The notes under the pieces are model-generated. The model saw nothing but the letters and a program-made list of their open reading frames with translations, did not search any database and had not been told where the DNA came from. The translations under genes were made by a program, and so were the position numbers. Positions 3,284 to 13,204 of a stretch of 42,893 nucleotides of DNA are shown here, piece by piece. How positions within the stretch are numbered: the first letter of the stretch is position 1; the number at the start of each line of letters is the position of its first letter. Source of the DNA: a virus; IMG/VR virus record IMGVR_UViG_3300037424_002455, positions 1-42,893 of that record, one strand, 5' to 3'.

Positions 3284-5947
3284 TTACGCCTGGGTCGGGA
3301 CAACACTTGCCTTGCCGCCGATCGGCGCGAGCGAAGCGTTGTACTCCTCCGCATAGTATTGATCTGCCGCCACCAGTTTGCCGTTGCTGTAGGTGGGGTA
3401 TGGTCCCTTCACGATCATGGGCGAGAAGATGCGGTGCATCACGATCTCACGGTTCAACACCAGGTTGAAGGTATCGCGCATCTCGGGCGTCTCGAAGACA
3501 TCCAGCCCTTTGACCCTGCCCACGAAACCAGCGGCATTCAACATGGCATTCGGGAACCCGTCACGTGTGAACCCGTCCCAATTGCTCAGGTAATCCGAGT
3601 TCGTGGCGCTCATCAACAGGGAAGTGGGGTTGTAGAAGCGGTTGACCACCTTGACCTTTGCCTCACCGATACGCTTCACGAGATCAAGATAAACAGCATC
3701 GCTGATATCCCATGCGGCGGTCTTGTTGCTCGCCACCGACAATGCAGCCGCCAGAGCCTTTTCGATCAGGCGGCGGTCCTTGTCACGTCGCATCTCGCGG
3801 ATGATATTTGCCATCGTGCGACCGACTGCATCCCAGCCGATCTGTGAACGGCTGAACACGATCGCTTCACTGGTGATGTAATCAGCCAGGCGGTCAGCCG
3901 CGGCGGTGATGGTCTGGTATGCGAGCGTGGTCTTGGCGCGTTCGATCTCGGCATCCTCGCCCTTGCGGGTCGCGTGGTAGCTGTAATCCACCAGCACATC
4001 GTTTGCATCGATGGCACCTGCCGCAATCGCACGGATTTTACCGAGTTCATAATCGATCACGAAGTCGGTGCCTTCCACATAGGTGGTGCCTGCGGGGTTG
4101 CTGGTCACAACGACCGTGCCTGGGACGATGTTCTTTTGCGCCAGGTCGTACCAGGTATCCTCCGCACCGGCAGTTTCAACTTCATCGGTGATGGCAACCA
4201 GGAAACCGGTCTCGCCTGTGAATGTCTCGTAAAAGATATTCATCGGTGATTGTTCCATGATCCCAAAATCGAAGATGTTGGCGGCAACCAGGTTGGGGTA
4301 CGCCTCGGCGATCACAGTGCGGCTGACCGAATAGGGCAGGTTCAGGTCCGCAGTGGTCTCAGCCTCTTCGAACATCTTTGCCTCGTTCATCAACTGCCGC
4401 TTGTATTGCTTGTCGAATTGAGCCAGCAACATATCTGTCAAAACTGCGGCGGGAGATTCGGCGCGTAACACGAGCGTGCTTTTGGCGCGTTTCTCGTGCT
4501 TGCGCACGGATTCGGTCAGCTCGAAAGCCACACGTGCGAATTCCGGCGTGCCGGTCTCGTTCTCGAGCACATCGCCGATCACTTTGATCGACTTGCTTTT
4601 CTCATCAAAGCCCATGCCTTTGAGAACGCCTGCCGCCGCCATCTTGCTGAACTGCTTGCGCTGTGATTCGGCGAACTTCTTCACAACTTCAGCGTTCGGG
4701 AGTTCGGCTTCATCGATGCTCTCAACGAACATCTTGTTGAGCGTCGCGCCGAAAGGCAGGTCCTTCACGACTTCCTTCTTCGCCTCGTCAATCGCGGACT
4801 GGGCTTCCAGATCGTCGAACTTCTTCGCCTTGACCGCATTACCCTTCACGGCTTCAACGATGTTCATATCCGCGCCGATCCCCAATGTCGTGCGCAGATT
4901 TTCTTCCAGTTTCTTCAACTGCTTTTCATTCAACGCTTCCAACTGCGCTTCTGTCATGCCCCTGTTGAAAAGTTCAGGTTGTTCAGCGAGTAATTTCTTC
5001 AATTGTTCAAGTAACTCGTTCATGTCAATTTCTCCTTGATTGGATTCAAAATAGTTGATCGACCCATTGGGGTCGCTTTGTTCGTTCGGCGTGGTCCCGT
5101 CATAACCGGTGATCACCAGTTGAGTGATTTCCTCGACTGGGACACCGCCTTGCTTGACCTTCTTCGATTCACCGTATCCGCGCTGACTGATCCCAGGGAT
5201 CACACCGCCGCGCATCTGGGCATGGATGTCCTTGCCTGCACTCGTGCCAAGCAGGTTGCCTTCCAAAAGGACTTGTTTCCCATCGAACGAAACAGTGTCC
5301 CAGTTGAAGACAATTTCACTCAGCAAAGAACGCCGATTGCCCTTGTCTGCGGGATGGTCTGATTCCCCTGTCAGCGATAACATACGTCCCTGTCCGTTGC
5401 TCTCATGGAGATGACCCTTCAATTCCTTGATCGCTCTTTCAAGCACCGAAGCAGGATAACGCCGTCCGTTTCCATTGATAATGTCAGCCGTAATGCCTAC
5501 GGCTCGAATGCGCCACGGTCCATCGGGAGTTTCATTCTCTGAACTTTCCACCAACTGGACCGAGTTTGCCACTGTCTCTTCAAACCGTTTCCCCTTTTTC
5601 TTTACGCTCGGGGAAGCTACTGCACCCTCAGCCACAGCCGCTTCCTGCGCGGTTGTCTTGGGCTGATAAGCCAGCTCCACCACTTCCCATTCATCACGCG
5701 GAGCGAAGGTATATTGATCTCCGCTCTTCGTATACGTCACCATGTAATACTCGGATGGCATCAACTCCGAACCATAGGATTCAATGGTTACAAAGTCTGC
5801 GAATGAATCGATGACATAGAAATTCGGACCGCCATCCAGATACGGGAATTGCACGCGGAACTGCTTGCTGATCCACGCCTGGGTATATTCCAGTGACCCC
5901 TTTACCAGCTCCTCAAGCGCTTTCCCTTTTTGAATTTTATTTTTCAT
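3284..5947 (-). CDS. Fusion protein: N-terminal domain, T4 gp21-like prohead protease, coiled-coil scaffold, HK97-fold major capsid protein
   Basis: INGNGRRYPASVLERAI...GESDHP...GISQRGYG resembles the gp21/S77 protease pattern. A Lys/Glu/Leu-rich coiled coil follows (EQLKKLLAEQPELF...). The C-terminal ~400 aa is capsid-like. AGGAG RBS. Confidence 0.7.
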   Translation of the reverse strand: MKNKIQKGKALEELVKGSLEYTQAWISKQFRVQFPYLDGGPNFYVIDSFADFVTIESYGSELMPSEYYMVTYTKSGDQYTFAPRDEWEVVELAYQPKTTAQEAAVAEGAVASPSVKKKGKRFEETVANSVQLVESSENETPDGPWRIRAVGITADIINGNGRRYPASVLERAIKELKGHLHESNGQGRMLSLTGESDHPADKGNRRSLLSEIVFNWDTVSFDGKQVLLEGNLLGTSAGKDIHAQMRGGVIPGISQRGYGESKKVKQGGVPVEEITQLVITGYDGTTPNEQSDPNGSINYFESNQGEIDMNELLEQLKKLLAEQPELFNRGMTEAQLEALNEKQLKKLEENLRTTLGIGADMNIVEAVKGNAVKAKKFDDLEAQSAIDEAKKEVVKDLPFGATLNKMFVESIDEAELPNAEVVKKFAESQRKQFSKMAAAGVLKGMGFDEKSKSIKVIGDVLENETGTPEFARVAFELTESVRKHEKRAKSTLVLRAESPAAVLTDMLLAQFDKQYKRQLMNEAKMFEEAETTADLNLPYSVSRTVIAEAYPNLVAANIFDFGIMEQSPMNIFYETFTGETGFLVAITDEVETAGAEDTWYDLAQKNIVPGTVVVTSNPAGTTYVEGTDFVIDYELGKIRAIAAGAIDANDVLVDYSYHATRKGEDAEIERAKTTLAYQTITAAADRLADYITSEAIVFSRSQIGWDAVGRTMANIIREMRRDKDRRLIEKALAAALSVASNKTAAWDISDAVYLDLVKRIGEAKVKVVNRFYNPTSLLMSATNSDYLSNWDGFTRDGFPNAMLNAAGFVGRVKGLDVFETPEMRDTFNLVLNREIVMHRIFSPMIVKGPYPTYSNGKLVAADQYYAEEYNASLAPIGGKASVVPTQA

Positions 5948-5964
5948 TTTGCACTCTCCTAAAA

Positions 5965-5999
5965 GCTAATCGCTAAAAGCTAAGAGCTGATAGCTAAAT
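5965..5999. repeat. Tandem heptanucleotide array (GCTNANN x5)
   Basis: gctaatc gctaaaa gctaaga gctgata gctaaat read directly. Spans the terL stop and the capsid-gene leader. Confidence 0.85.
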
Positions 6000-9921: not shown

Positions 9922-10265
9922 TTTCTCTTGATCGGCTTTATCTTTGGCTCAGTGTCCAAAGGGTCGAACTTCGGAACGGCATAACCGTTGTTCAATAATT
10001 CCTTTTCCAAAGCCTCGGCATAAGTTCGCCAATTCCTCTTCTCCTTGCGCTCCTCTTCCAGCCTTTTCATCAACAGATCATTGCTGATCTGTGCCCCCTG
10101 CATATTTGATTCAGCCGCCTCCGCAATGGATTCGGCTTTCTCAGCCTTCATCTTGGCGACTTCCTGCGGAAGTTTGCGCATCGTCTGAAACAGCAAAACA
10201 CCGAAGTTCAAAAGCGAAAGAAAAGTTACACCGTAGAATTGAAGTCGTTCATTGTCAATGTCCAT
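9918..10265 (-). CDS. Membrane-anchored coiled-coil protein (spanin-like by architecture)
   Basis: Start at MDIDNERLQ. N-terminal TM followed by a charged coiled coil (KMKAEKAESIAEAAE...EEERKEKRNW). Confidence 0.5.
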   Translation of the reverse strand: MDIDNERLQFYGVTFLSLLNFGVLLFQTMRKLPQEVAKMKAEKAESIAEAAESNMQGAQISNDLLMKRLEEERKEKRNWRTYAEALEKELLNNGYAVPKFDPLDTEPKIKPIKRK

Positions 10266-10545
10266 GTTTCCATGACCTATACACATACAATAATGGCACT
10301 GCTTGAGATAGACAGAGCACGATGATGGACGCCCGTACCATGTACGAGCGGAGTTGGATGTCAACGATAATGAACGAAAATCCTGAATAGATCAGAAGTT
10401 GAACGACGAACGCACCAGCAAATATCTTCGCCAGGTCCCAGATCGGCACGGGATAACGGATCAACCAGACCGATGCCCACATCGCCCCCGCGAACGAGAT
10501 CGCCAGCGCCACTATAAATGCAGTCAGATCAAAAAAGAATTGCAT
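10255..10545 (-). CDS. Multi-TM small membrane protein (holin-like)
   Basis: Start at MQFFFDLTAF. 96 aa with three hydrophobic segments. Confidence 0.55.
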   Translation of the reverse strand: MQFFFDLTAFIVALAISFAGAMWASVWLIRYPVPIWDLAKIFAGAFVVQLLIYSGFSFIIVDIQLRSYMVRASIIVLCLSQAVPLLYVYRSWKHGH

Positions 10546-10554
10546 GGTTATGTA

Positions 10555-10575
10555 GGGGCGGGGTCTCCCCGCCCC
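10555..10575. other. GC stem-loop between the two holin-like genes
   Basis: ggggcgggg tct ccccgcccc: 9-bp perfect stem, no U-tract. Confidence 0.6.
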
Positions 10576-10588
10576 CATACCAATCCAA

Positions 10589-10786
10589 CTATTTATTCTT
10601 CCTGGCACGGTTCGCAAGAAAGCTCTTGACAGGTGCGCCCACAACTTCAACACCCAGCTTCAACAGAACGTAGACCAGGAAGGCAAGCAACACTTCTGCC
10701 GAGATGGGGAAATCGGGAAAGAACTGTGTGATCAAGCCATACACCAACGCCAAAAAAAGAGCCAACAGGGAATATTCAACTTTCAT
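10589..10786 (-). CDS. Holin-like protein (two TM segments, basic C-terminus)
   Basis: 65 aa with an AAAGGAG RBS. First gene after the late terminator. Confidence 0.6.
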   Translation of the reverse strand: MKVEYSLLALFLALVYGLITQFFPDFPISAEVLLAFLVYVLLKLGVEVVGAPVKSFLANRARKNK

Positions 10787-10809
10787 TTCAAATCTCCTTT
10801 TTGATAATC

Positions 10810-10837
10810 GCTCATAGCTATCAGCTAAAAGCTACTT
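10810..10837. repeat. Tandem heptanucleotide array (GCTNNNN x4)
   Basis: gctcata gctatca gctaaaa gctactt read directly. Confidence 0.8.
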
Positions 10838-10873
10838 AAACGCAAAACGCCCGATGTCAAAAGACATCGGGCG
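10836..10873 (-). terminator. Rho-independent terminator (minus strand)
   Basis: RNA reads CGCCCGAUGUC-UUUU-GACAUCGGGCG followed by UUUUGCGUUUAA: 11-bp stem, 4-nt loop, U-tract. Confidence 0.75.
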
Positions 10874-10929
10874 CTACACGACAAGCCATCTGCCACACAA
10901 GGCAGTTTGCGCTTCTTTACCTGCCCTGA

Positions 10930-10958
10930 ATTTTAAATCCCCTCATCGCGATTGTCAA
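10930..10958 (-). promoter_or_regulatory. Near-consensus sigma70-type promoter (candidate late promoter)
   Basis: On the minus strand: cccTTGACA, 17 nt, TAAAAT. About 50-85 nt upstream of the terminator at 10836-10873. Confidence 0.6.
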
Positions 10959-10982
10959 GGGTACTTGACGCGCCCCCTAACA

Positions 10983-11003
10983 GCTAAAAGCCAACAGCTA
11001 AAA
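10983..11003. repeat. Heptanucleotide array, left half (interrupted by the IS-like insertion)
   Basis: gctaaaa gccaaca gctaaaa. Phase continues at 12034 once the insertion and one TSD copy are removed. Confidence 0.8.
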
Positions 11004-11012
11004 GATAGGGAC

Positions 11013-11264
11013 TTATATACATGTCTCTTTATCAAGACCAATCGGACTATGCTCAAAGATAGTGCCAACCTTGACACTAAATTGTTTCTTGCAGGTTTTG
11101 CATTTCCACGTTTTGCGGGTGGTGAGATATGAGTGCTCAGTCCCCTTGCAGTTTGGGCATACAACACCATCAGACCAACGCATATCAACGAGGTATTGAT
11201 GAGCGATGTCTTTATCTGCAAAAAACACGATTGCTTGCTGGAGTGTCTGCGGTTTGGATGTCAT
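11013..11264 (-). pseudogene. Truncated IS1595-type transposase (N-terminal zinc-ribbon domain only)
   Basis: CPNCKGTEHSYLTTRKTWKCKTCKKQFSVKVGTIFEHSPIGLDK matches the ISXO2/IS1595 N-terminal Zn-ribbon pattern. The ORF runs straight into the left IR (..ETCI stop). No DDE domain. Confidence 0.7.
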
Positions 11265-11266
11265 AG

Positions 11267-11548
11267 TTAGGCTTTCTTTGTTTTGGGGCGTCCGCCAAGT
11301 TTGCCGTTGTTGGCAGACGATTGAGCTTTTCGAGTGGACTTGATCGAGCCGAGGGCAGCGCCTGCACGTCGTGCATCAAGCCATTTACCATCAAGGGCAT
11401 TTTGTACAGCCTCAATATCAGCAAGGATGCTGTGATTGTTTGTAACAAGTTCCGCTCTGCCATCGGTGGACATCCTGTTGAGCATTATGCGGGCGTCGGT
11501 CATGGCTTGGGTGGCTTTGAGCAACAGTTGAGTATCTTTTGTGTTCAT
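11267..11548 (-). CDS. Hypothetical passenger protein with a basic GGRPK C-terminal tail
   Basis: Start at MNTKDTQLL with a GGAG RBS. 93 aa, ending ...NNGKLGGRPKTKKA. Confidence 0.6.
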   Translation of the reverse strand: MNTKDTQLLLKATQAMTDARIMLNRMSTDGRAELVTNNHSILADIEAVQNALDGKWLDARRAGAALGSIKSTRKAQSSANNGKLGGRPKTKKA

Positions 11549-11599
11549 GATTTTCTCCAAGTAGAGAGGGGGGGCTTTCGCCCTCCCCAATCTAGTTGT

Positions 11600-11878
11600 T
11601 TATCCGTATCTATTCCTGAGCCAGTCCACATCAATATGATCGCCGTCGTTGTCGATAATCACGTGGCTAAACTCGCTCTCTCGGTCATGGATTTCCAAAG
11701 CCTCTTCGGGGGTCTCGCACGTGTAGTAGAGATTGTTACCGTAGTAGGCGGCGAGCACGATTGCGTATTTGTGCCCATCAGGAAAAATGATGTCCCGGTC
11801 AAAGTGCTCGCTTGCAGTATCGTGGATGGTTCCAGTGCCTGACATTTTTGCTTCGATTGTTACCGTTGTTTCGCTCAT
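11600..11878 (-). CDS. Hypothetical passenger protein
   Basis: Start at MSETTVTIE with an AAAGGAG RBS. 92 aa, acidic. Confidence 0.6.
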   Translation of the reverse strand: MSETTVTIEAKMSGTGTIHDTASEHFDRDIIFPDGHKYAIVLAAYYGNNLYYTCETPEEALEIHDRESEFSHVIIDNDGDHIDVDWLRNRYG

Positions 11879-11928
11879 TTCGATCTCCTTTTTGATTTTG
11901 TTGATACCTCGTACCAACTTATACCACT

Positions 11929-11958
11929 ATAATAACCTAACGTTAGGTTATTGTCAAG
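11929..11958 (-). promoter_or_regulatory. Near-consensus promoter with a 22-bp perfect palindromic operator inside the IS-like element
   Basis: On the minus strand: cccTTGACA, 18 nt, TATTAT. The spacer is the palindrome aataacctaacgttaggttatt (11931-11952). Confidence 0.6.
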
Positions 11959-12033
11959 GGTTGGAGAACACCAGTTTTTATGCCAATTTAGGAGGCTCAG
12001 GTGAGATATGTATATAAGTCCCAAAAGATAATA

Positions 12034-12054
12034 GCTAATCGCTAATAGCTAAAA
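12034..12054. repeat. Heptanucleotide array, right half
   Basis: gctaatc gctaata gctaaaa read directly. Confidence 0.8.
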
Positions 12055-12863
12055 GCCCTCACCACCACCGGCACCCACATCAACACCACAACCCCCAACA
12101 ACTCCAACGGACTATCCAACAAATACACCAACACCGCGCTCCACGTAAACTGCAACACATACGGAGCCAGCAACGGGCTCGAAGCCATCGCCAGCCGCGC
12201 ATTCCCCTTGCGGATCGCCCTCACCAAAACCACCCACCCCAACGCCATCCCATACCACCCCAGGCTCGTATTATCAACGCTCCACGCCAAAGTCTGCCCG
12301 AAGCGCAAAACCCAAACCCCATACACAACAAAAGAAACCAGCGTCAAAACCGTCACCGGCAAAAACGTCCTCACCATCGCCCAAAACCCCCGCTCGTTCC
12401 AGATACACACAAACCAGAAAACACCCAACCCAACCCCCACCTGAGGCTTCACCGCCAGCAAGACCAACCCCCACTGCGGCGGCAGCACCAACCCCAACAA
12501 CGGCATCCACTCGATATTCCCATTATTCAAACAACCTACCACAGCCGCCGAACACAAGAACAACACCAGCGTCCACCGCCTCGCCCCCAACTGAAAAGCC
12601 GTAAACGCAAACGCACACAACCCCACCACGAACATCCCAGCCCGCCCCACCTCCAACGGCAACAAAGCCAGCGGCACCAACGGCAACACCGCCCACGGAG
12701 CCGCATAATAGATCTCCACCGAAAACGGGCTCTCACCACTCCACACAGCCAGAGCCGCAGGTCGATACGTATTCTGCCAGTCCACCCCCACCGGCAAAAC
12801 GAACACCATCGCAACAAAAGCGATAATGAAAAGTACCACCAAAACGACCTGCTTCACGCCCAT
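12042..12863 (-). CDS. Polytopic membrane protein, DUF2029 / GT-C-like glycosyltransferase (putative)
   Basis: 273 aa with about 8 TM segments. The N-terminal pattern DWQNTYRPAALAVWSGESPF...YYAAPWAVLPLVPL and ...LLAVKPQVG resemble the GT87/DUF2029 family. Confidence 0.55.
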   Translation of the reverse strand: MGVKQVVLVVLFIIAFVAMVFVLPVGVDWQNTYRPAALAVWSGESPFSVEIYYAAPWAVLPLVPLALLPLEVGRAGMFVVGLCAFAFTAFQLGARRWTLVLFLCSAAVVGCLNNGNIEWMPLLGLVLPPQWGLVLLAVKPQVGVGLGVFWFVCIWNERGFWAMVRTFLPVTVLTLVSFVVYGVWVLRFGQTLAWSVDNTSLGWYGMALGWVVLVRAIRKGNARLAMASSPLLAPYVLQFTWSAVLVYLLDSPLELLGVVVLMWVPVVVRAFSY

Positions 12864-13204
12864 TAGATTCTCGCCCGGTTAGCCTTTCTCTGCACCTTCC
12901 GCACGCGACCCTTCGCCACCCGAGCCTGCAACTGCACCAACTGCTCCTGCCTCAGCCCCAATATCAACTCTGCCAACGCCTCAACGCTGATATCCCAGAA
13001 AGACACATGATCACAACTCTCACAACGGATCGACACCTGCCCGATCAGCGGACCGAACACCTCCACCTCCGCAGGCACATCATTGCTCATATCGATCGAA
13101 TGTCTCAACATCATCAACGTCGGGCTATCCTGCTGATTCCATCGGATCATCCCCAACACCGCACCACACCTCTTATTCTGACAACGCCATTGCTTCTCTC
13201 TCAT
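12863..13204 (-). CDS. Zinc-ribbon protein, hypothetical
   Basis: Start at MREKQWRCQNKRCG with ATGA overlap. Second Cys pair at CESCDH. Confidence 0.5.
   Translation of the reverse strand: MREKQWRCQNKRCGAVLGMIRWNQQDSPTLMMLRHSIDMSNDVPAEVEVFGPLIGQVSIRCESCDHVSFWDISVEALAELILGLRQEQLVQLQARVAKGRVRKVQRKANRARI

Follow-up and report, generated by a model that had tools for sequence, protein, structure and literature searches.

The IMG/VR virus record IMGVR_UViG_3300037424_002455, which we analyzed over its entire 42,893 nucleotides (hereafter, the window), represents a temperate phage, with genes for a large terminase, prohead protease, primase, C5-methylase, and large serine recombinase. At 11008-12022, it contains a 1,015-bp element that is almost certainly an internally deleted, non-autonomous derivative of a phage-borne transporter insertion sequence (IS) of the IS1595 family. 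The element is bounded by terminal inverted repeats (IRs) and, at both edges, by a perfect 8-bp target-site duplication. On its minus strand it carries a promoter that spans a palindrome, two passenger genes (the open reading frames ORF-B and ORF-A), and the remains of a transposase gene (Table 1). Our best overall explanation, which is probably correct, is a deleted copy of a transporter IS together with an operon that resembles the acr-aca operons.

Table 1. Features of the element and of the site where it inserted. Coordinates are those of the window.
Feature	Position	Strand	Details
Interrupted phage repeat array, left half	10976..11007		AGCTAA at 14-nt spacing; target site, outside the element
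Target-site duplication, left copy	11000..11007		AAAAGATA, abuts the IR, read directly
Terminal IR, transposase side	11008..11027		GGGACTTATATACATGTCTC, 20 nt; inner 3-4 nt of relatives (ACCT) gone
Transposase stub, 83 amino acids	11013..11264	-	Pfam Zn_ribbon_IS1595 (PF12760), E = 2.5e-15
ORF-A, 93 amino acids	11267..11548	-	basic, pI 10.5; ends ..GGRPKTKKA; conserved C-terminal tail LGSIKSTRKAQSSANNGKLGGRPKTKKA
Inter-cistronic hairpin, between ORF-B and ORF-A	11558..11598	-	core GGGGAGGGC-GAAA-GCCCCCCC; minimum free energy -23.6 kcal/mol, z = -3.7
ORF-B, 92 amino acids	11600..11878	-	acidic, pI 4.5, net charge -13; variable cargo gene
Hairpin in the 5' untranslated region (5' UTR)	11900..11918	-	GUUGGUAC-GAG-GUAUCAAC, close to where the transcript is predicted to start; in the minimum free energy fold
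Promoter, near-consensus, sigma-70-type	11929..11957	-	TTGACA (11957..11952), 17 nt, TATTAT (11934..11929); 11/12 consensus
Palindrome, candidate operator	11931..11952		AATAACCTAACGTTAGGTTATT, 22 bp, perfect, spans the promoter spacer
Terminal IR, promoter side	11999..12022		reverse complement GGGACTTATATACATATCTC plus ACCT extension (11999-12002), 24 nt
Target-site duplication, right copy	12023..12030		AAAAGATA, abuts the IR
Interrupted phage repeat array, right half	12023..12056		target site, outside the element
Deletion junction	inner edge of the transposase-side IR		GATAAA / GAGACATG (the slash marks the junction)
Junction sequence of the deleted form			GATAAAGAGACATGTATATAAGTCCC
Expected sequence of the empty site			CAGCTAAAAGATAATAGCTAATCGC

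The insertion and its target site

The IRs and the direct repeat lie where a sequence-only reading of this DNA had placed them: GGGACTTATATACATGTCTC at 11008-11027 matches the inverse of 12003-12022 at 19 of 20 positions, and these are the only two copies of the IR in the window if up to 3 mismatches are allowed (0 were expected, based on 100 dinucleotide-preserving shuffles). That reading had also described the insertion as clean, with the phase of a repeat array restored by removal of the element. Indeed, when we excised 11008-12030 in silico, the flanks joined to give a single tandem array of 8.1 copies (period, 7 nt), every GCTAA motif fell into a single phase, and four AGCTAA motifs were spaced 14 nt apart; with the element present, the two halves of the array are out of phase. 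Because the IRs are abutted by the duplication and excision restores the phase of the array, there is good evidence that this is a true insertion with an 8-bp duplication. No empty site was found in a related phage: the only relative of the flanking 273-amino-acid membrane protein (58% identity) is in L210, where the region downstream is not syntenic. (We number related loci from other contigs with an L.)

The insertion point is an AT-rich array of 14-nt repeats, 50 bp upstream of a phage promoter. Short arrays of AGCTAA with 14-nt spacing occur in two or more of the phage's intergenic regions (5964-5997, 10823-10828, 10976-11007, and 12023-12056), and one of them sits between the terminase and prohead-protease genes. 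These arrays may be binding sites for a phage regulator. It was an array of four AGCTAA units that the insertion split.

A deletion derivative of a phage-borne transporter IS

By definition, elements of the IS1595 family duplicate 8 bp of their target, and their transposase has a zinc finger at the N terminus and a DDE_Tnp_IS1595 domain at the C terminus (PMC8101967). The element has the zinc ribbon, the 8-bp duplication, and IRs that start with GG, and it lacks the C-terminal domain. The transposase stub scores 56.6 bits against PF12760, for which the cut-off is 25.4. Residues 1-79 are the N-terminal zinc ribbon, the last 4 codons and the stop come from the IR, and the reading frame is intact, with all four cysteines. 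Pfam identified no DDE domain in the element or in the rest of the window, and there is no second IS1595-type transposase elsewhere in the window. Without a DDE domain, the element cannot move itself. The sequence-only reading was thus right that this is an IS1595 derivative that retains just the zinc ribbon.

That reading implied that full-length parents or other copies would exist, and related elements do. Intact relatives of 1.8-2.0 kb on other phage contigs (L004, L012, and L131) have related IRs (14-17 of 20 positions identical to the window's), 8-bp duplications, and a transposase of about 320 amino acids with both the zinc ribbon and the DDE domain. In L004, an ORF-A homolog (81% identity) lies directly before a 319-amino-acid protein with Zn_ribbon_IS1595 and DDE_Tnp_IS1595 (PF12762), and the edges of the unit are the IRs GGTAACTATATACTTGGCACGC and the 8-bp duplication AAATCTTT. 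The window's element aligns to L004 in two blocks, one with the IR and the promoter (12025..11867, 79%) and one with ORF-A and the zinc ribbon (11589..11035, 76%). The stub is 79% identical to residues 3-78 of the L004 transposase, and this homology ends at 11028, the inner edge of the IR. L012, which is also an IMG/VR contig, contains an element of 1,784 bp whose IRs are perfect over 26 nt; it has ATACAAAA as its duplication, a transposase of 320 amino acids, and a related promoter and palindrome. A full-length transposase was present in 127 of 166 further loci that we scanned, and for all 12 distinct elements with defined bounds, the duplications matched at 8 of 8 positions and the IRs had the form GG.A..TATATAC. 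We also found an independent derivative that lacks the DDE domain (L261, in two samples), whose IRs are identical to the window's at 19 of 20 positions and whose operator and cargo differ. The ends GGGACTTAT and GGTAACTAT resemble ggnnatTAT, the end consensus of the ISNwi1 subgroup, to which the element may belong.

Lost in the deletion were the transposase gene from codon 80 onward, the small basic ORF that lies behind it in the relatives, and the inner 3-4 nt (ACCT) of one IR. Compared to the ends of L130, L131, and L261, the promoter-side IR has 24 nt, as in the relatives, and the zinc-ribbon-side IR stops after 20 nt. The stub also lacks the conserved region that comes next in the relatives (residues 80-125), in which WMIANAKNGISS.EI.RALGVTQKTAWF.LHRIR reads as a putative helix-turn-helix (HTH). 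Short zinc-ribbon homologs (77-146 amino acids) were all that the protein search first returned. Most of these derive from the same gene, through separate truncations or deletions within it, and some may have been cut by the ends of contigs. Several independent truncations retain the first 71-87 residues (the window, L261, L001, and L263). We considered whether deletion breakpoints cluster just after the zinc ribbon, but we rejected this idea because the list of homologs held short proteins only, which is an ascertainment bias.

Transporter ISs are IS copies with passenger genes and, as cited in PMC3129680, were first described in the IS1595 family (Siguier, Gagnevin and Chandler 2009). The same source cites De Palmenaer et al. 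2004 for the mobile insertion cassette (MIC), an IR-flanked cassette without a transposase, as in MIC231 of IS231 from Bacillus cereus. An intact transposase together with passengers inside the IRs is found in L004, L012, and L131 and not in the window. Instead, the window has IS-type IRs around passengers with no working transposase, as in a MIC, although a stub of 79 residues stays. Because it combines the features of the IS1595 family with passengers within the IRs and no DDE domain, the window's element is a MIC-like deletion derivative of an IS1595-family transporter IS, which is a known kind of element. We ruled out a miniature inverted-repeat transposable element, as the element, which is known from a single copy, has 1,015 bp and three intact ORFs.

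The intact relatives resemble IS1595 transporter ISs in having a transposase with a zinc ribbon and DDE_Tnp_IS1595, IRs that start with GG, 8-bp duplications, and genes within the IRs that are not for transposition. They differ in that the lineage is mainly on phage contigs; that the passenger is a complete operon, with a promoter, a candidate operator, cargo, and a putative regulator, upstream of the transposase gene; and that the transposase gene has a small basic ORF coupled to its 3' end. The window's copy differs further in lacking the DDE domain. Like MIC231, the window's element has IS-type IRs around passengers without a working transposase and could potentially be mobilized in trans by a cognate transposase; unlike MIC231, it comes from another IS family, retains a transposase stub, and is known from a single copy.

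The sequence-only reading had the short form mobilized in trans. This is one of two possible histories: just one copy with this junction is known, and the same structure is equally expected from a deletion in place. In the latter history, a full-length transporter IS inserted and duplicated 8 bp and later lost its DDE region, so that the short form would be a decaying fossil that never transposed. Because two IRs and a duplication are equally expected under both histories, we put the chances that the short form transposed or was deleted in place at about even. A deletion in place would account for the single copy and for the exact IR, which had no match in viral or genome contig collections and is known just from its two arms in the window. 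It also fits with the clipped inner ACCT of the IR that relatives retain, with the lack of a helper transposase in the window, and with the one-ended fossils of the same lineage (L001 and L135). Against it, both IRs are intact over their outer 20 nt (19/20) and the duplication is still perfect, which would make any decay very recent; and the L261 contig ends exactly at the IR, as expected of a multi-copy relative that lacks the DDE domain. Both of these points discriminate weakly.

Three other observations concern the relatives. First, all full-length relatives with defined bounds carry a small ORF for a very basic product of 43-57 amino acids (for example, MPNSSKKPNTNKPDSFDKFNDLMKKLIKVPPKKKAKPKKRIKKK..), which is absent from the window because of the deletion. 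This ORF either overlaps the final ~17 codons of the transposase gene, in the +1 frame, or is stop-coupled (ATGA), and it reaches or enters the right IR (L012, at 3497-5280, with the ORF at 1630-1779 of the element; L004, L130, L131, L137, L157, L195, L203, L204, and L209). It is retained even where the transposases share only ~40% identity over the zinc ribbon, and so is probably a genuine additional gene of this group of ISs. Second, the transposase gene of L130 (2998-4308) is split by an insertion that encodes a cysteine-rich ORF of 100 amino acids, and a homolog of this ORF in L263 (783-1317) lies between a forward IR-like GGCAACAACATACTTGACACACAA and a right IR. This suggests a nested, cargo-only mini-element of the same family. 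Third, reading outward through the promoter-side IR of the window (11990-12022, plus strand), we noticed by eye a strong Shine-Dalgarno sequence and then a start codon (AGGAGG-CTCAG-GTG). The left ends of L004 and L012 have the same outward layout (AGGAGG..ATG CGT GCC AAG TAT ATA), and it is kept in four elements (the window, L004, L012, and L130). It could allow translation into the flanking DNA, or it could merely be a conserved subterminal sequence that the transposase binds.

A promoter with a palindromic candidate operator

The sequence-only reading described a near-consensus promoter with an 18-nt spacer that is a perfect 22-bp palindrome. The hexamers, the length of the palindrome, and its perfection all stand, but the spacer is 17 nt and the palindrome does not coincide with it, as it extends 1 nt into the -35 hexamer and 4 nt into the -10 hexamer. 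The promoter frame TCTCCAA(N)CCCTTGACA is kept in L004, L012, L130, L224, L228, L230, L246, and L256, and the core of the palindrome is identical in L004, L212, L213, and L033. Because the same 25-nt promoter/palindrome is 100% identical beside ORF-A homologs whose coding DNA is only ~71% identical, this is very probably an operator-controlled promoter, as had been proposed.

Both predicted hairpins of the transcript are found in other elements. For the 5'-UTR hairpin, across 6 elements, 97.9% of cells are paired (23-52% in slid controls) and 3 pairs have compensatory changes. The inter-cistronic hairpin is kept in L004, L012, and L211, and it forms the right boundary of the exchangeable ORF-B segment that is described below. 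A search of 10500-12500 against Rfam gave no match.

Interchangeable first genes

Two passengers of about 92 amino acids had been noticed in the element, one of them with a GGRPK tail. These are ORF-B and ORF-A (the one with the tail), but they are not peculiar to the defective copy, as the cassette also belongs to the intact parental IS lineage and occurs free of any IS. The first gene of the cassette differs wholly among the window, L004, L012, L211, L212, L130, L224, L228, L230, L246, and L256. When we compared 12 first-gene products, the best pairwise BLASTP hit had E = 0.28, and 10 of the 12 are acidic (pI below 6.1). In particular, ORF-B is replaced by unrelated genes in L004, L012, L211, and L212. 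The homology between the window and L004 breaks just past the start of ORF-B (codon ~4) and resumes at 11589, at the hairpin before ORF-A, which implies that ORF-B is a swapped segment.

We found 73 homologs of ORF-B. Outside of this cassette, they occur alone with their own promoter and terminator, or before a FitA-like ribbon-helix-helix (RHH) protein, and they are often near integrases. For instance, in L214-L217 (2501-3284; the ORF-B homolog is in at least 24 contigs), a 50-amino-acid FitA-like RHH protein comes next, and an ASCH-domain protein also follows in 2 of the 4 loci. Thus, this cargo family is found with a different small regulator as well.

The structural model of ORF-B is an alpha/beta fold (pLDDT 81, pTM 0.69). 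ORF-B has no match in Pfam, NCBIfam, or PHROG, the PDB sequence search found nothing below E = 0.4, and Foldseek comparisons of the models to PDB and BFVD found nothing below E = 0.05. The other cargo proteins gave two weak PHROG matches only, both to families of unknown function. ORF-B might be an anti-defence protein, but we consider this doubtful.

ORF-A and its conserved tail

The stop codon of ORF-A is 2 nt ahead of the ATG of the transposase stub. Homologs with 61-84% identity to ORF-A sit behind at least 4 mutually unrelated first genes, and these homologs do not vary in their last 30 residues (LGSIKS..K..SSA.NGKLGGRP.K). Among 1.84 billion representatives, a profile search identified at least 1,468 clusters with this tail at E <= 0.001; nearly all of these are small proteins and the match is confined to the tail. 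Just 4 of 140 sampled tail proteins had any match in Pfam, and none of these matches was over the tail. A literature search for the GGRPRK/GGRPK tail returned unrelated peptides only. For ORF-A itself, Pfam, NCBIfam, and PHROGs gave no match, no Foldseek hit in PDB or BFVD was below E = 0.05, and the PDB sequence search returned a designed helical repeat only (E = 8e-4). The model of ORF-A is all-helical (pLDDT 72, pTM 0.36) and the tail is predicted to be disordered.

The sequence-only reading had suggested that the two passengers might be a toxin-antitoxin pair. In this scenario, the toxin gene comes first, the palindrome mediates autoregulation, and the pair stabilizes the element or causes abortive infection. 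The architecture is suggestive, with two small adjacent genes behind an operator-controlled promoter and with one acidic and one basic product. However, the partners are not conserved together, which disfavors such a pair: besides the four unrelated first genes that pair with ORF-A homologs, the homologs of ORF-B do without ORF-A, as described above. Neither protein has a toxin or antitoxin domain (Pfam, NCBIfam, or PHROG) or a structural match. We consider a toxin-antitoxin pair to be very improbable.

Are the palindrome and the tail linked? Across 44 distinct tail proteins with fetched loci, 7 have CCTAA-N0-6-TTAGG within 700 nt upstream, as compared to 0.17 in shuffles and 0 in a downstream control. 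L212/L213 would be an eighth case of palindrome plus tail, but the motif pattern missed its tail. In L033, the window's palindrome core is upstream of a 45-amino-acid protein that shares the tail alone. (The tail proteins of L029, L033, and L049 have 45-49 amino acids and consist of a CPHCGK knuckle and the tail.) Furthermore, the type of palindrome changes with the type of second gene. The window, L004, L212, and L230 have a CCTAA..TTAGG-type palindrome and a GGRP-tail protein; L130, L224/L259, and L228 have a ACACGTTGTACAACGTGT-type palindrome and a K.SRKAPRTH protein of 64-70 amino acids; and L246 has a different imperfect repeat and a third type of protein. Hence three types of second gene are found in the same promoter frame, and at least two of them have their own type of palindrome. 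(We considered whether the second gene of L246 encodes an RHH protein, but Pfam did not confirm this.) Because the palindrome and the tail co-occur, and because the operator type changes with the second-gene type, ORF-A is probably an autorepressor that acts on the palindrome. The tail module may be part of how ORF-A recognizes DNA.

Alternatively, the palindrome might not be the operator for ORF-A. It could be bound by a factor of the host or of the phage, or it could be a recombination site for the exchange of cargo, as cargo genes are clearly exchanged. The binding of ORF-A is a prediction, and the half-sites ACCTAAC and GTTAGGT formally match the consensus for the core sites of integrons, which is RYYYAAC/GTTRRRY. 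This likeness is probably a coincidence because the boundaries of the cargo swaps (codon ~4 of ORF-B and the inter-ORF hairpin) are away from the palindrome. Also, the palindrome is placed exactly between the -35 and -10 hexamers, its type changes together with the second-gene protein, and no recombinase is associated with the module. Another role for the palindrome thus seems distinctly unlikely.

Another alternative is that the zinc-ribbon stub is the functional regulator, with ORF-A doing something else: the stub would bind the IRs or the palindrome, and independent derivatives would have kept it for this reason. The stub's intact reading frame and four cysteines are as expected if so, as is the retention of the first 71-87 residues by the independent truncations, although the short-homolog list is biased to short proteins and supports no claim that breakpoints cluster. 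There is also a precedent, InsA of IS1, a product with an N-terminal zinc finger and an HTH that binds the IRs and inhibits transposition. The stub resembles InsA in being an N-terminal, zinc-binding fragment of a transposase that lacks the catalytic domain. In contrast to InsA, it arose from a deletion rather than by programmed frameshifting, and it does not include the HTH part, as residues 80-125, which are conserved in the relatives and read as an HTH, are gone. Furthermore, palindromes and tail proteins are found without a zinc-ribbon gene in L212, L033, L029, L049, and L230. We consider it quite improbable that the stub, instead of ORF-A, is the regulator.

Some tail proteins are associated with Lar-like proteins (CPFCG...AWN.R, identified by eye). 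A Lar-like protein is fused to the GGRP tail in L010 (3782-4150) and in L014 (3830-4156), and in L027 (3531-3899) the gene for one lies just ahead of that for a tail protein. Among the 140 sampled tail proteins, one matched Lar_restr_allev from Pfam. These matches to Lar, for restriction alleviation, are a faint link to anti-defence.

Cassettes without an IS

In L212/L213, the identical 25-nt TTGACAATAACCTAACGTTAGGTT is followed by a different ORF of 92 amino acids, an ORF-A homolog (61% identical in amino acids, ~71% in DNA), and a terminator, with no IR and no transposase. A scan with the conserved leader of the promoter identified further free-standing units, including L230. We found no conserved neighboring gene by tblastx of the upstream flanks of the free-standing cassettes. 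We also considered whether these cassettes are bounded by IRs of their own, but the upstream motif proved to be a direct repeat that lies before many genes.

This 17-nt motif, GGTAA[CA]GC[AG]AACCGTTA, is present 6-8 times per locus in L224, L230, L246, and L256, mostly within ~4 kb. It is oriented with the genes and precedes many small ORFs, in several cases just upstream of the ribosome-binding site. Many copies are flanked by short complementary arms of varying sequence, which would pair into a hairpin whose loop is conserved. The motif thus resembles a modular element of intergenic regions. The motif is not enriched in the window. Because this motif, found in the phages with free-standing cassettes, is missing from the window's phage, we suggest that the cassette arrived in this phage inside the IS.

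Comparison with acr-aca operons and a proposed model

In acr-aca operons, the strong promoter required in early infection is the target of repression by Aca proteins, which contain an HTH (an RHH in the case of Aca14) (PMC13551039, PMC9410906). Aca2 and Aca1 bind RNA of the 5' UTR as well (PMC13551039, PMC9410906). The cassette is similar in that it has an inverted-repeat operator within a strong promoter (judged from sequence only), a structured 5' UTR, hypervariable first genes that are small and mostly acidic, a conserved small gene downstream for a putative regulator, and a location in a mobile element. It differs from acr-aca operons in that ORF-A lacks an HTH or RHH and its DNA binding is only predicted; in that no cargo is a known Acr; and in that the operon is inside an IS, with the transposase gene directly after it in the intact relatives. 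The sequence-only reading's other suggestion, of an anti-defence pair, holds up insofar as the architecture is like that of acr-aca, but no cargo matches a known function. By analogy, the cassette appears to follow the logic of acr-aca anti-defence operons, of which it is a candidate member.

We propose the following model for the deleted transporter IS and its operon. An element of the parental type inserted into the AT-rich repeat array and duplicated 8 bp, and a deletion removed the remainder of the transposase gene. What is left is a minus-strand operon: the promoter with its 22-bp palindrome, the 5' hairpin, ORF-B, the second hairpin, ORF-A, and the zinc-ribbon stub. When the DNA enters a cell that is free of repressor, the strong promoter would fire. 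ORF-A, which is basic and predicted to be helical and whose conserved C-terminal tail is AT-hook-like, would build up, bind the CCTAAC/GTTAGG palindrome, and turn the promoter off. ORF-B would be an interchangeable acidic cargo protein, perhaps with an anti-defence role. In the intact relatives, the transposase gene begins 2-3 nt after ORF-A and no separate promoter is apparent by eye, so the same switch would gate the expression of the transposase. In the window's copy, this function of the switch would be dead, and the element would move only if a related transposase were supplied in trans.

Several observations weigh against this model. ORF-A does not contain an HTH or RHH domain, and the structural model for it is only moderately confident (pLDDT 72, pTM 0.36). 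The binding of ORF-A to DNA is a prediction. The palindrome is upstream of only 7-8 of about 45 tail proteins, and the co-variation of operator and regulator is based on a handful of independent loci. No cargo protein matches a known anti-defence, toxin, or other family by Pfam, NCBIfam, PHROG, or structure searches. An exact parent with the window's IRs was not found in the viral and genome collections that we scanned, and related phages offered no empty site.

A more ambitious reading is that a phage-specialized IS1595 lineage shuttles acr-aca-like cassettes among unrelated phages. A new, non-HTH class of repressor with an AT-hook-like tail of ~30 residues would read CCTAAC/GTTAGG, and transposition would burst upon infection and then stop. 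The tail in this reading would be LGSIKS..K..SSA.NGK.GGRP.K, with at least 1,468 protein clusters and no Pfam family. We think it unlikely that this holds in full. Although the mobile element is of a known kind, the cargo module, the candidate non-HTH repressor family, and their tie to a phage-borne IS lineage are new.

Surroundings of the insertion

A BLASTN search with 10000-13000 against GenBank phages gave no match. The phage promoter that lies 50 bp beyond the insertion is a second sigma-70-like promoter on the minus strand, within 10958-10846 (TTGACA, 17 nt, and TAAAAT; 11/12 consensus). It shares an identical 12-mer around the -35 hexamer with the promoter of the element (11950-11961 and 10951-10962; ACCCTTGACAAT on the minus strand). 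About 55 nt downstream of the phage promoter is a 13-bp, GC-rich, terminator-like hairpin, and after the hairpin there are small, hydrophobic, holin-like ORFs (10786..10589 and 10653..10255). This layout recalls the late promoter and terminator of lambdoid phages, which are under antitermination, and by this analogy it is plausible that the phage promoter is a late promoter. No terminator-like site was predicted downstream of ORF-B inside the element. Since the IS is 50 bp upstream of the phage promoter and no such site was predicted, read-through from the element towards the phage promoter region is possible.

Implications

The conserved tail of ORF-A can serve as a handle for guilt-by-association searches, much as aca genes do: the variable genes that precede tail proteins are candidates for new functions in anti-defence or in the takeover of the host. 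With CCTAAC/GTTAGG as the predicted operator, the proposed regulation is open to a direct test. Should the cargo prove to be ordinary, this would still be a clean and well-bounded IS1595-derived cassette in a phage. ISs are considered to be rare in phage genomes. Through a phage-dwelling IS lineage that carries a whole accessory operon with its own regulation, such operons could move between unrelated phages, and the lack of the intergenic motif of the free-standing cassettes from the window's phage fits with such an IS route.

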